50,384 nucleotides of DNA from a virus (Duplodnaviria; Heunggongvirae; Uroviricota; Caudoviricetes), in the IMG/VR virus record IMGVR_UViG_2880412407_000006; one strand, 5' to 3'. Position numbers: made by a program. Below are positions 18,001 through 24,000 of this stretch, piece after piece. Positions within the stretch are counted from its first letter, which is position 1. The number at the start of each line of letters is the position of its first letter.

Positions 18001-21000
18001 GCCAGCCTGAACAACTGGCAACCTACAGCGCCATTGGAGACAGCAATGGCGCATATACAACTGGTCAAACAAACCTCTTCCGGATTACTTCTCCCGGCGA
18101 CGCCGGAGAGTTGTGATTTTCTGCATCAAATCAAAATAGGCGAGTGGATACACGCTGATTTCAAGCGCGTTCGTAACTACGCATTCCATAAGCGTTTTTT
18201 CAAACTTCTGCAACTCGGATTCGATTACTGGACTCCGGTCGGTGGGGCGATCACTCCTCGCGAGCGAAAACTGGTGTCCGGTTTCGTTGATTATCTGTGC
18301 GAATCAGTAGGCCGGGAACATACGCCAGCTCTGAGCGAAGCCGCAGAGCAATATCTGAATACAGTTGCGACACGCAGAACCCGAGATACAGCATTGCTAA
18401 AGTCGTTTGAGGCTTTCCGCGAGTGGGTAACCATTCAGGCAGGATTTTACACCGAGCATATTTATCCTGATGGTAGTCGTGGGCGCAGGGCAAAATCTAT
18501 CGCATTTGCGAACATGGACGAAACCGAGTTTCAGCAGGTTTATAAATCTGTACTGAATGTGCTGTGGAACTGGATCCTGTTCCGTAAATTTTCCTCTCCG
18601 GAGGAAGTCGAAAATGTGGCCGCGCAGCTGCTGGAGTTTGCGTAATGGTGGATTTACGTAAAGCGGCAAAAGGTCAGATGTGTACAGTCAGAATTCCTGG
18701 CTACTGCAATCACAATCCCGAAACGTCCGTGCTGGCGCATTACAGGCTGGCGGGGACGTGTGGAACAGCGACAAAACCACACGATATGCAGGCGGCAATT
18801 GCCTGTAGCTCATGCCACGATTTAATCGACGGGCGGGTAAAAACCAGCGATTACACCAAAGAAGAATTGCGCCTGATGCATGCAGAAGGTGTTTTTCGCA
18901 CACAAGAAATCTGGAGAAAGGAAGGTTATTTATGATTTACCCAACAAATACAGGCAAAAGCGGGGAACGCCTTCGTCTCACCACGCTGGAAAGTGTCTGG
19001 ATTCAGGGAAAACTGCGCATGTGGGGGCGCTGGTCGTATATTGGCGGCGGTAAGACGGGAAATATGTTCAACCAGTTGCTGACCTCTAAAAAGCTGACAA
19101 AAACGGCAATTAACGAGGCGCTCCGGAGGATGAAAAAAGCAGGTTTGGACAAACCTGAACTTGAGGCTTTTTTGCGGGATATGATCAACGGCAAGCAAAA
19201 AAGCTGGCTGGTGCATTGTACTGATGCAGAGGCGTTATGCATTGATCGGGTGATTAGTGAAGTGCTGGCAGAACACCCAGGATTGATTTGTATCCTCCGG
19301 CAACGATATGAAGGGAGGGGGATGACTAAGCGAAAAATGGCTGAATTGCTGAATGATTCACACCCTGAGTGGTGTTTTCGGACGTGCTGCAGTCGGGTAG
19401 ATGTATGGCTAAATCTTGCTGAATATATGCTCTATCTACCGATGCGTGATGCATTCTCTTCCGGGGATCTAAAAACCGTCTGTTGACTCAATCTGTTATC
19501 CGGGGCTATATTCCTCACGCGCCAGCAAAATCTGGCGTCGGGATTGGAACCCCGGATAGAGACCGCGACAGACACACGCCGCGAGCGTGTTTTTTATTGT
19601 CGTATGCACGCGCACATCTGAATTATGGTGGGGCGCATGGGGGAGCTGAAAAGCTCGCCGGTCGGTTTCCCGGTAGTTCCAACCCTGTGCGTCTCACCAC
19701 CCGATGATTGGAACCTGACGGTGGTGATAGTTTAGAAACCACCAGAGGGCGTCATTATGACAACTCAAATTTCTGTTGAAACTCTCTCCCCGATCACCCA
19801 TAACCGGATTCCTGTTATTACCACCGAACTTTTGGCGCAGCTTTACGGCACTGAGCCGGTGCGTATTCGCCAGAATCATCATGAGAACAAAGTACGCTTC
19901 GTTGAAGGGAAACACTTTTTCAAAGTTGTTGGTAATGACCTTAAAGAATTGCGGGTAGCTTTAAACTACTCACAAAATCCCATCTCTCCCAAAGCCCGCT
20001 CCCTTATCCTCTGGACAGAACGCGGAGCAGCCCGCCACGCAAAAATGCTCGAAACCGATCAGGCGTGGGATGTGTTCGAAAAACTGGAAGACTGCTATTT
20101 CAGTCAAAAGGATCCGTCAGCGCCAGTTGCATGCCAGAAAAGTTACGACACGCGAGTTCTCTGTTATCAGTGAGGTGGTGTCACTGTTTCCACAATTCAG
20201 TTACGGGATGATGATATTGTTATTTCCCTTGAGTCATGGCTGGAACTGGCGAGAGCCAATGGTTGGTTTGTTGTTCGCAGAGATAAACTGGTGGAAAGGT
20301 TGATGCAGCTTTAAAAAAGTTCTTGCATTTTTGCACATAAACTGCTTCAATTCCGGTACGCTTCGCAAAGCTGTATCGCGAGGCGAACCAAGCGCATGAA
20401 CTTTACCAGAACCCGCCATTGAGCGGGTTTTTTATTGCGGAATTAATTACGGACCGTTATTATTCTGCTCCCGGCCCTTTAGCTCAGTGGTGAGAGCGAG
20501 CGACGCATAATCGCCAGGTCGCTGGTTCGAATCCAGTACAACGCGCCACACTTATTTTCCCTGGCTCGCTTTTGCGGGCCTTTTTTTTAAATGTCTCACA
20601 ATTCAGGCGGTTGACTGTTGTCTGGTTTGCGGGGAGTTTGTTAAAAGAAACTGGCATGGTGAATCCCCCTGTGCGGAGGGGCAATCAGTGAGTAGGTATA
20701 TGGGATAATCGCGGATTCAGGTGCTGGTACTGAATTCACCGGGAGGCACCCGGCACCATGCAAGAAAAAGAATGTGCATGCAAACATGCCCCTCTCCGGA
20801 GGGGCATTTTTTATGGGTAAAAAATGCCCGAATGGGTTCGGGCAATAGCATGAGATACTGATATTGTTGTGTTGTTATCGTGTGGATTTTAACCAGGGTT
20901 TATCAGGCTGCGCAACTGCGTGGCCTTTTTTCATTTCTTGGGCTGTAGTCCCCGTGTGTCATTCAGGCTTCCGGACTACAGCCCACTCCATATCTGATTT

Positions 21001-24000
21001 AATACACTATCCCGGCCGGGAGGAATAATGACATTTAAACATTATGATGTTGTCAGGGCGGCGTCGCCGTCAGACCTTGCGGATGCGCTTGCTCAAAAAA
21101 TTCGTGAAGGATGGCAGCCATACGGCGGGCCGTTTTCTTCGTATACGGATGATGGCGCAGCACTTATTCAGGCGATTGTCGCAGAAGGTGATGTGAGCAC
21201 ACCTGTTGTGGTGAAGCCGTCGGATGGAGAGGGCACAGTAATCAGCGCCACCAGAGACCCGGAGTATTACTTTGTTGTGGTTCTGGCGGGGCAGTCAAAC
21301 AGCATGGCATATGGTGAAGGCCTTCCGCTGCCGGAGACATATGACCGTCCGGACCCGCGTATTAAGCAGCTGGCGCGCCGCAGTACGGTGACACCGGGCG
21401 GTGCAGCATGCAAATATAACGACATCATTCCGGCGGACCATTGTCTGCATGATGTGCAGGACATGAGCCGCCTTAACCATCCGAAAGCGGACCTGTCAAA
21501 GGGGCAGTACGGAACCGTGGGGCAAGGGCTGCATATCGCCAAAAAATTGCTGCCGTTTATACCGGCGAATGCGGGCATTCTGCTGGTTCCGTGCTGTCGT
21601 GGTGGTTCAGCGTTCACCACCGGAGCCGATGGCACATACAGTGACGCGAGTGGTGCCTCGGAGAATTCAACCCGCTGGGGTGTGGACAAGCCGCTGTATA
21701 AGGACCTTATCGGTCGAACAAAAGCAGCACTGAAGAAGAACCCGAAAAATGTGCTGTTTGCCGTGGTGTGGATGCAGGGGGAATTTGATTTTGGCGGTAC
21801 GCCGGTAAATCACGCAGCACAGTTTGGTGCGCTGGTTGATAAATTCCGTGCAGACCTGGCGGATATGGCAGGTCAGTGCGTCGGTGGCTCTGCTGGCGGT
21901 GTTCCCTGGATATGTGGAGATACGACGTATTTCTGGAAGCAGAAGAACGAATCCTCGTACCAGACGGTGTACGGCAGCTACAAAAACAAAACGGAAAAGA
22001 ATATCCATTTCGTACCGTTCATGACGGATGAGAACGGGGTGAATGTGCCGACGAACAAACCGGAAGAAGACCCGGACATTCCGGGTATCGGATATTACGG
22101 TTCGAAATGGCGTGACAGCTCAGCCACCTGGACGTCACAGGACAGGGCGAGCCATTTCAGCGCCTGGGCACGCCGTGGGATTATTTCCGACCGTCTGGCA
22201 ACGGCGATTTTGCGCCATGCGGGAAGAGTGGCGCTAAACGCGGGGGCATCATCGACAGTATCAGAGGTGCGCCCGTCATCGCCTTCCGGTGCAGAAGCCA
22301 CAGGCGTCACAGCACTGCTCTCTTACCTTGCCAGCGAGTCAGAGGGAAGCCTGAAAGTACAGGGATGGTCAGCCAGTGGCGGCAGGGCAGAAGTGGTCAG
22401 CGATGCGGAGGGAACCGGAGGTAAGGCAGTGAAGCTGACCAAGGAAGCCGGTAAAAGCAGCTGGGTGCTGGAGTACGCCGCGGGCAACGGTGCGGCTCTG
22501 TTACAGAAAGGGGGGCAGATTCGCTGCCGCTTTAAGGTTTCGGGAGCGCTGGCTGCGAACCAGTATGTTATGGCGTTTTACTGGCCGGTATCTTCACTGC
22601 CACAGGGCGTTGCCCTGACCGGAGACGGGGGGAATAACCTGCTGGCAGCGTTCTACATCCAGACAGATGTAAAAGACCTGAATGTGATGTACCACAATGC
22701 GAAAGTGGCGACAAACAACCTGAAACTGGGAACCTTTGGCGCATTTGATAACGAATGGCATACGCTGGCTTTCCGCTTTGCCGGGAATAACAGCCTTCAG
22801 GTGACGCCGGTTATTGATGGTCAGGATGGCACACCGTTCACGCTGACGCAGTCACCGGTCAGTGCATTTGCGGCGGATAAACTGCATGTGACAGACATTA
22901 CCAGGAATGCGACTTACCCGGTGCTGATTGACAGCATTGCGGTGGAAGTGAACAACGCGGATGCCGCGGCATGATAAAAAAAGCCGCCAGTTGCCTGAGA
23001 CCTCTGGCGGTGTGAGATTCATGGAGAATCAAGGAAAGATACTACCACTTTCGTCATCGGCATTTTTAAATGAAAACTGTTTACTTAGTCAACCATAACG
23101 GTAAGAAATTATGACATTTATTCATCAGCTGATGCTGTACTTCTGTACGGTGGTCTGTGTGCTGTATCTCCTTTCGGGTGGGTACAGGGCCATGCGTGAC
23201 TTCTGGCGCAGACAGATTGACAAAAGGGCCGCTGAGAAAATCAGCGCCAGTCAGTCAGCCGGAAGCAAACCCGAAGAGCCGCTCATTTAGCGGCAACTTT
23301 CTTAATCACATCTTTCGACGAGAAAATCCCATGTCAGAAATTACATCCCTGGTCACTGCTGAGGCAGTGAAGGAAGTCCTGCGCTCTGAAGAAGTCCGGA
23401 GTGCACTGAAACAGAAACTCCGCCAGAATCTTGAGTCGCGTCTTGATGCAGAAGTGGATGCTATTCTGGATGAACTGCTGGGCGCACCGGCAGTTCCTGA
23501 GCCGGAAGGTATCGCGGGTGAGGGGAGTGCTTCAGATGGCGGTGAACCCACACCTGACAGCGACATGATGATGTAAGCATGCGCAAGGGGCCATCGGTGT
23601 GTGCCGGTGGTCTTTATATTGTTGTGAGCTTCCGGATTGCGGGAGACGGGGTATGTACCAGATGGAAAAAATCACAACAGGTGTGTCATACACCACGTCA
23701 GCGGTGGGAACGGGCTACTGGTTCCTGCAGTTGCTGGACAGGGTTTCCCCGTCTCAGTGGGCGGCAATAGGCGTGCTGGGGAGTCTGCTGTTTGGGCTGC
23801 TGACATATCTGACGAACCTGTATTTCAAGATTAAAGAAGACCGGCGTAAGGCGGCACGGGGAGAGTAAGCTGATGAGCAGGAAACTCCGCTATGGTTTAT
23901 CGGCTGCCGTTCTGGCGCTGATTGCCGCAGGTGCTTCTGCGCCTGAAATCCTCGACCAGTTTCTGGATGAAAAGGAAGGTAACCACACCACGGCATACCG

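Follow-up and report, generated by a model that had tools for sequence, protein, structure and literature searches.

An stx-negative late-region cargo slot with two small RNA genes, a dead tRNA and nanS-p in a lambda-like prophage

Introduction

We examined a DNA of 50,384 nucleotides (nt) from a tailed virus (Caudoviricetes), IMG/VR record IMGVR_UViG_2880412407_000006, which as a whole is called the window below, and within it the segment 20174-22974, lying between a Q-like antiterminator gene and the lysis genes. It is highly probable that this segment is the late-region "moron" slot of a lambda-like prophage that lacks the Shiga toxin (Stx) genes and sits at the Rac (ttcA) site, and that the AgvB-type allele which the slot carries is likely ancestral and was never occupied by stx. 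The slot holds the fused remnant of a tRNA gene, a terminator, an empty stx site, two convergent small RNA (sRNA) genes, one of the STnc100 family and the other AgvB, and nanS-p, a prophage gene for a sialate 9-O-acetylesterase. All of these components, and the overall layout, are already published (Tree et al. 2014; the NanS-p literature), and the segment is an ordinary stx-negative lambdoid late region.

It is a published point that the lambdoid prophages of pathogenic Escherichia coli use the slot behind Q for cargo, which may be stx. With or without stx, the slot carries fitness cargo, namely anti-sRNAs that rewire the host's sRNA networks and an esterase acting on mucin sialic acid. For the surveillance of Stx-producing E. 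coli (STEC), the prophage is to be seen as an stx-negative relative that shares recombinogenic flanks with the Stx phages.

A reading made earlier from the sequence alone had listed Q, a degenerate tRNA, a gap, a nanS-p-like esterase and the lysis genes, and every listed element was found where that reading had put it. It overlooked the two sRNA genes, the fused nature of the dead tRNA and a nonsense-mutated antirepressor gene. The range it gave, 20174-22974, does enclose the slot's elements, but its beginning, 20174-20314, is the in-frame tail of the antirepressor gene and not intergenic DNA.

Results and discussion

The empty stx site

The relationship to Stx phages is plain at the DNA level. 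In blastn comparison with phage VT2-Sakai, 20433-20536 matches the leader and most of the tRNA-Ile gene ileZ (92%), 20517-20589 matches the 3' part of argO, the third tRNA gene, with its terminator (90%), and 20592-23100 matches the DNA that runs from 42 nt past the stx2B stop codon through nanS-p. This last alignment, at 87.6% over 2.5 kb, excludes a chance resemblance. The intrinsic terminator at 20563-20588 (+ strand), found by a terminator scan, is the one that follows argO in Stx phages, and is 90% identical to positions 4832-4903 of the VT2-Sakai locus (L002). The empty site itself is 20589-20592, where the breakpoints 20589/20592 face 4903/6236 of L002; the same breakpoints recur against 4199/5532 of the Stx2_12E129_yecE locus (L030), a second, unrelated and lambda-like Stx2a backbone. 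The stx2AB cassette of VT2-Sakai, 1,332 bp long (L002 4904-6235), is thereby matched by 2 nt in the window. It would appear that the terminator normally preceding stx is here joined directly to the DNA that follows stx2B in Stx2 phages, with no toxin cassette between. In the stx-negative phage phi296 the tRNA genes likewise run into the matching downstream DNA without stx.

Might stx lie elsewhere? Across the whole window, tblastn with Stx2A and Stx2B and blastn with the stx2 cassette (word size 7) gave chance matches only (E >= 0.7). The stx operon, which marks a Stx-converting phage, is thus missing from the 50 kb, as the sequence-only reading had held. That reading had also proposed aligning the gap with stx-flanking DNA, and the outcome is homology, with a clean junction at the cassette edges and no stx remnant.

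Was the toxin cassette lost, or never gained? The earlier wording, a stx-negative relative that had lost or not yet gained the toxin, is right as to the relative, and of its two histories we favor the second. Recent loss by deletion from a Stx phage, with the empty slot as the scar, is an improbable account. It draws on the fact that recombination has clearly deleted DNA from the locus once, when argN was lost in the fusion of ileZ with argO (described below), and on the NanS-p protein, which is 91% identical to a Stx2-phage protein and whose N-terminal 82 residues are 100% identical to those of Stx2a phage Stx2_12E129_yecE. Against it stand the absence of stx remnants, a Q gene unrelated to that of VT2-Sakai, and a junction like that of the empty site in many stx-negative prophages, among which some have three intact tRNA genes. 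Beyond the junction, moreover, the spacer and the AsxR-type allele linked to stx2 agree at only about 72%.

The distribution of the alleles bears on the same question. The stretch 20460-20900 is covered to 80% or more in no fewer than 705 of the 5,426 complete E. coli genomes. The AgvB-type allele (20760-20905), at megablast sensitivity, occurs in only 4 of 50,697 phage records, and the sole near-identical one among them is the stx-negative phage PPyecE_EH1910 (100% over 20760-20905); the other three records, at 85-86%, come from two phages of Shigella sonnei, of which one bears the name 75/02 Stx. Taken together, the commonness of the stx-less layout, the spacer divergence and the distribution of AgvB-type records make it unlikely that a known Stx phage simply lost the cassette by deletion. 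Most probably the slot represents an AgvB-type allele that is ancestral and never held stx.

Two convergent sRNA genes in the gap

The gap between the tRNA element and nanS-p, 20549-21027, is 479 nt long. It had been described as about 480 bp of non-coding DNA with several hairpins, which is correct as to length, hairpins and lack of protein-coding content but passes over two known sRNA genes. The first, at 20625-20818 (+), is an STnc100/PasD-family gene that matches Rfam RF02076 over its full length (model positions 1-206) at 143.7 bits, the gathering score being 47. The terminator scan assigns it a terminator made up of the stem 20786-20807 and a T run, and this is the clear terminator hairpin that the earlier reading had marked at 20786-20812. 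The second gene, 20819-20880 (-), encodes the anti-sRNA AgvB; it matches Rfam RF02702 at model positions 1-62 with 96.5 bits (gathering score 56), and all 62 of its nucleotides are identical to the consensus. The two genes are convergent, and AgvB has its own Rho-independent terminator at 20844-20825 on the - strand. The matching spacer of VT2-Sakai holds STnc100 (207.7 bits) and AsxR, also convergent.

AgvB and AsxR, when aligned, have the 3' terminator part in common and differ in the 5' seed. In AgvB, the CACAACA motif, which mimics the targets of GcvB region R1, stands at nt 10-16 in the 5' variable region. With a GcvB sequence that was verified beforehand, the 5' 22 nt of AgvB give a predicted duplex of -19.4 kcal/mol against -12.5 +/- 2.7 for shuffled sequences, a value that 7 of 500 shuffles attained; for the 5' end of AsxR the figure is -9.6. 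The CACAACA region would imitate GcvB targets and sequester this core sRNA, so that DppA and other transporters would be de-repressed. For O157 Sakai, AgvB is known to be expressed, to be bound by Hfq, to relieve GcvB repression and to aid growth in bovine rectal mucus (PMC4104026). From the identity of sequence, we infer the same sponge activity for AgvB in this prophage.

The stretch 20881-21027, strongly conserved in four phages, contains the predicted AgvB promoter region on the - strand, with hexamers, picked by eye, of TTGCGC and TAAAAT separated by 18 nt just upstream of 20880. A hairpin with a T run on the + strand, 20905-20932 in the terminator scan, overlaps this promoter region, and the nanS-p leader comes after it.

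Could the gap instead be an inert spacer with nothing but terminators, or a home for small protein genes? PGAP and PHANOTATE do place small or partial "hypothetical protein" open reading frames (ORFs) there, and several of the hairpins carry T runs. We give this account hardly any weight since two curated sRNA families are matched over their full length at scores that greatly exceed gathering, and in view of the persistence of the paired layout in Stx and non-Stx phages alike and of the experimental detection of the convergent sRNAs, AgvB included, in O157 Sakai (PMC4104026). Small proteins were considered separately and rejected, as the ORFs are broken by stop codons or frameshifts in more distant homologues (VT2-Sakai, phi296). 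Annotators should therefore read the gap's "hypothetical protein" fragments as sRNA genes. In RefSeq, one such partial "hypothetical protein", at 20644-20787 (-), overlaps the STnc100-family gene. A number of weak Rfam matches (Phe and Trp leaders, GcvB, NsiR1 and snoRNAs, E 0.2-0.9) were set aside as chance or as generic terminator hairpins.

A dead tRNA made from two

Upstream of the gap, 20473-20548 (+) is a 76-nt tRNA remnant, a fusion of ileZ with argO, recognized by alignment and pair counting and partially by Rfam. Positions 1-56, from the 5' end through the T-stem, are those of ileZ except that U33 has become G; from the T-arm and T-loop to the CCA the sequence is that of argO. The fusion point is the CTGGTTC of the T-arm, which ileZ and argO have in common, and argN is deleted. 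The dead tRNA would have arisen, then, when ileZ and argO recombined at their T-arms within an array of three tRNA genes such as is typical of Stx phages. Its acceptor stem combines the 5' strand from ileZ with the 3' strand from argO and can make just 2 of its 7 pairs, whereas each parent makes all 7.

This fused, mispaired stem explains why the annotation programs disagree. ARAGORN finds no tRNA in the whole window; the Rfam tRNA model scores 37.3 bits but at positions 7-64 only, leaving both acceptor strands unmatched; and PGAP labels 20478-20548 "tRNA-Met", which is misleading. The RefSeq "tRNA-Met" (20478-20548) is this dead chimera. A functional tRNA has a paired acceptor stem of 7 bp and U33, and the chimera has 2 pairs and G33. 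The chimera is dead as a tRNA, and the sequence-only reading was right to call it degenerate.

The tRNAs of Stx phages have been proposed to decode rare codons of late genes. Might the chimera still do so? If it worked, it would be a CAU tRNA of the Ile2 type rather than the tRNA-Met of RefSeq. The PGAP call, the Rfam score, the intact D-arm, anticodon arm (CAU) and T-arm, and the presence of 22 copies on varied flanks in IMG/VR (20 identical, 2 with one base changed) speak for a working molecule. Yet with 2 of 7 acceptor pairs, a G in place of the near-universal U33, rejection by ARAGORN and an Rfam match that includes neither acceptor strand, a working tRNA is scarcely credible.

The copies themselves are instructive. 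The chimera is found in 22 IMG/VR viral contigs, 20 of them identical and two with one D-loop change, and always with G33. Upstream modules vary among the 22 loci, downstream identity ranges from 74 to 100%, and none of the 22 has stx. Where downstream DNA suffices to tell, STnc100 is present in 16 of 16 loci and AgvB in 13 of 16. IMG/VR held no match to an intact ileZ with G33 and none to the chimera with T33, against the 22 for chimera with G33. The invariance can therefore be explained, and is favored to be explained, by a dead allele of single origin that spread by recombination inside conserved tRNA sequence. There is a very small probability that the chimera has been kept as a tRNA-like RNA that cannot be charged, for example as a processing signal in the late transcript or as a decoy for tRNA nucleases; the hint for this is that all 22 copies share fusion point and G33 despite variable flanks. 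Selection on the chimera is nevertheless unconvincing, as the linkage pattern fits the single-origin allele. The chimera was not found in the GTDB species-representative genomes, an uninformative result with one genome per species.

The nanS-p gene and its flanks

The esterase gene, nanS-p, is 21028-22974 (+) and encodes 648 residues with the Pfam domains DUF1737 (residues 3-53), SASA (catalytic) and DUF6645 (lectin-like, residues 492-610). RefSeq names the product only "DUF6645 domain-containing protein". Both the DUF1737 and the C-terminal lectin-like domain are absent from chromosomal NanS. The protein is identical to orf42 of VT2-Sakai at 590 of 648 residues (91%); residues 426-643 are 98% identical to the "NanS-p" structure PDB 6YP6 (E 1e-138), and chromosomal NanS, 3PT5, agrees with residues 74-396 at 55% (E 2.4e-116). 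Ser90, in the motif GQSN, and His376 align with Ser19 and His301 of NanS, the catalytic residues of that enzyme (Rangarajan et al. 2011).

Comparison with known NanS-p proteins, the check proposed with the sequence-only reading, accordingly groups the esterase with phage NanS-p (91% to orf42) and not with chromosomal NanS (55%). On its domain structure, identities, catalytic Ser and His, and position between the Q/stx slot and the lysis genes, the esterase is to be assigned as NanS-p, not as a NanS of the chromosomal type. It presumably strips 9-O-acetyl groups from mucin sialic acids, which would let the lysogen grow on them. Esterase activity on Neu5,9Ac2 has been demonstrated for the EDL933 and O104:H4 alleles (PMC8065619), and nanS-p is also reported from non-Stx prophages, and the encoded esterases are active (PMC10462455, PMC8065619).

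The N-terminal 82 residues (21028-21273) form a variant of their own, with 50% identity to the proteins of the VT2-Sakai/933W type (PA), as compared with about 97%, by arithmetic, for the remainder. We considered whether this variant tracks stx status and rejected the idea, as the same variant is found in a Stx2a phage, Stx2_12E129_yecE. The DUF1737 of the phi24B esterase is described as a capsid-decoration domain (2026 preprint), and by analogy the N-terminal variant might track capsid type.

Two further observations concern the flanks of the gene. The nanS-p leader (+) has at about 20940-20985 a perfect 12-bp hairpin, GGGCTGTAGTCC...GGACTACAGCCC, and also holds the ribosome-binding site; the hairpin is kept in four phages, with one mismatch and no compensatory change in VT2-Sakai and phi296. 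At the other end, 22976-23091 (-) is a candidate sRNA gene, convergent with nanS-p. Its -35 element, TTGAC(T/A), is conserved, its -10 is A/T-rich and its middle is variable; a hairpin, CACCGCCAG...CTGGCGG with T7, is conserved as well and ends right at the nanS-p stop codon. The candidate is conserved in VT2-Sakai and phi296, with a fold z-score of only -2.07, and matches no Rfam family; its location fits that of PasA/PasC in prophages of enteropathogenic E. coli (EPEC).

Gene order and late transcription

The Q-like gene, 18932-19486 (+), matches Pfam DUF1133 (E 1.2e-105), weakly Phage_antitermQ, and PHROG 753, "anti-termination protein Q-like". Downstream of nanS-p, Pfam identifies a P21-type holin (23599-23868), a lysozyme (23873-24406), a P22-type antirepressor, ant (24677-25246), and Rz (25400-25867). 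The Stx-phage-like order which had been given for this region, Q, tRNA, gap, nanS-p, S, R, ant and Rz, proves to be colinear with Q, the tRNA genes, stx2AB, orf42, S, R, ant and Rz of VT2-Sakai. The Q gene itself is not a Stx-phage Q, a candidate identity that was ruled out because the protein lacks similarity to the Q of VT2-Sakai.

How is the slot transcribed? On induction, a terminator-resistant, Q-modified polymerase would transcribe nanS-p together with the lysis genes. In EDL933 z1466 (nanS-p) is among the most strongly induced late genes (PMC8065619), and by analogy we infer Q-dependent expression of nanS-p here. The earlier picture of a late transcript leading "straight into the esterase" is too loosely worded, given that an isrK/C4/antirepressor module and about five terminator hairpins separate the Q-like gene from nanS-p.

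Several points weigh against our overall reading. No Q-dependent late promoter was located for this type of Q, and the sole consensus sigma-70 site between the Q-like gene and nanS-p, 19483-19512, is part of the isrK/antirepressor module. Transcription of AgvB and STnc100, like the Q-dependence of nanS-p and the esterase activity, is ascribed to this prophage from close homologues. Finally, the junction sequence by itself cannot settle whether stx was never gained or was lost.

The isrK/C4/antirepressor module

The module upstream of the tRNA element begins with the promoter-like site just mentioned, 19483-19512 (+), which a promoter scan matched at 10 of 12 positions. There follow three Rfam matches on the + strand, all above gathering: an IsrK-like RNA with a terminator (19519-19595; isrK, 77.5 bits), c4-a1b1 (19506-19558; 50.1 bits) and a C4-like antisense RNA (19621-19704; C4, 71.0 bits). 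Next is an ORF6N, AnrP-like antirepressor pseudogene at 19757-20314 (+; Pfam ORF6N), which PGAP marks as incomplete. It reads for 138 codons to a TGA at 20171-20173, codon 139 of about 186, after which the tail of 47 codons, 20174-20314, continues in frame; in alignment, this TGA corresponds to a CGA in the intact gp31 of phage pPE4. On the 3' side of the gene, a terminator-like hairpin read from the sequence, AACCCGC/GCGGGTT with a T run after it (20410-20436, +), is conserved in pPE4 and absent from the terminator-scan list. In VT2-Sakai, blastn places the matching isrK/antirepressor module in the nin region, apart from Q.

The arrangement resembles the antQ-isrK-orf45-anrP-isrJ region of Salmonella Gifsy-1 (Hershko-Shalev et al. 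2016; PMC4825925) in that an antirepressor gene and an IsrK-family RNA, the latter with its leaky terminator, come after a Q-like gene, and differs in the premature TGA that the antirepressor carries here. Should the IsrK-AnrP-AntQ circuit of Gifsy-1 apply to this prophage, its antirepressor copy may be disabled. After the antirepressor gene, Rfam gave no match to IsrJ at E <= 1.

The pPE4 record deserves a remark. PP818812.1 (L005), labelled "Actinobacillus phage vB_Apl-pPE4", is 84% identical to the window across the stretch with the Q-like gene, isrK and the antirepressor. It also carries genes typical of E. coli lambdoid phages (hok, DUF1367, TerB). Its Actinobacillus host label looks doubtful.

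The prophage around the slot

Positions 19400-21100 are 100% identical to prophages in STEC chromosomes, among them those of O121:H19 2014C-3599 and 16-9255 and O157:H7 F3113. In the RefSeq annotation of the matching 50 kb, ttcA, the Rac site, adjoins the prophage, which is of the lambdoid type. Given there are intR/xisR, recET, kilR, an inserted IS3, hokD, a toxin of the doc family, the late region described above, genes for a lambda-like head and tail (gpU, gpG/T, tape measure, gpJ), nleC and IS600. In the early region, beside the IS3 insertion, PGAP places two convergent genes at 13080-14715, for a "sce7726 family protein" and a "beta family protein", a pair that may be accessory or defence-type cargo.

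Comparison with known systems

How does this late region stand among its relatives? Stx2 phages of the VT2-Sakai/Sp5 and 933W type have the order Q, ileZ-argN-argO, stx2AB, STnc100 (EcOnc27)/AsxR, nanS-p, S, R, ant, Rz. The window shares with them the gene order, the tRNA leader (90-92%), a convergent sRNA pair at the matching place and NanS-p (91%). It differs in having no stx2AB and one dead chimera in place of three tRNA genes, AgvB with its different 5' seed instead of AsxR in a spacer that is about 72% identical, an unrelated Q, and virion genes that are lambda-like rather than those of Sepvirinae.

Tree et al. (2014) described the DNA downstream of the Q-antiterminated promoter PR' as tolerating morons and carrying convergent sRNA genes (PMC4104026). 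They found such sites in Sp5, 3' of stx2B, and in the non-Stx prophages Sp3, 4, 9, 10, 11, 15 and 17, with AgvB located in Sp10 and Sp17 of O157:H7 Sakai (PMC4104026). The window agrees with the Sp10 and Sp17 loci in having AgvB convergent with a + strand sRNA gene, downstream of Q/PR', in a stx-negative lambdoid prophage. Sp10 is presumably the Rac-site prophage of Sakai.

Phages phi296/TL-2011a (Traversvirus) and PPyecE_EH1910 also lack stx, so that STnc100 and nanS-p come directly after the tRNA region or after other cargo. In phi296 the three tRNA genes are intact, the junction has about 32 extra nt, and neither AgvB nor AsxR reaches the gathering score. PPyecE_EH1910 has the same STnc100 and AgvB allele, with 97% identity over the gap and 100% over 20760-20905, but carries methylase and TerB-like cargo in place of the tRNA genes, and a shorter NanS-p. 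A last parallel is with the prophages of EPEC E2348/69, where STnc100/PasD and PasA sRNAs flank an esterase gene (Zhu, Shabalina & Storz 2026; bioRxiv 10.64898/2026.05.13.724894). The window resembles their PasD2-esterase-PasA arrangement, with an STnc100/PasD-family sRNA gene upstream of the esterase and a candidate - strand sRNA gene just downstream.

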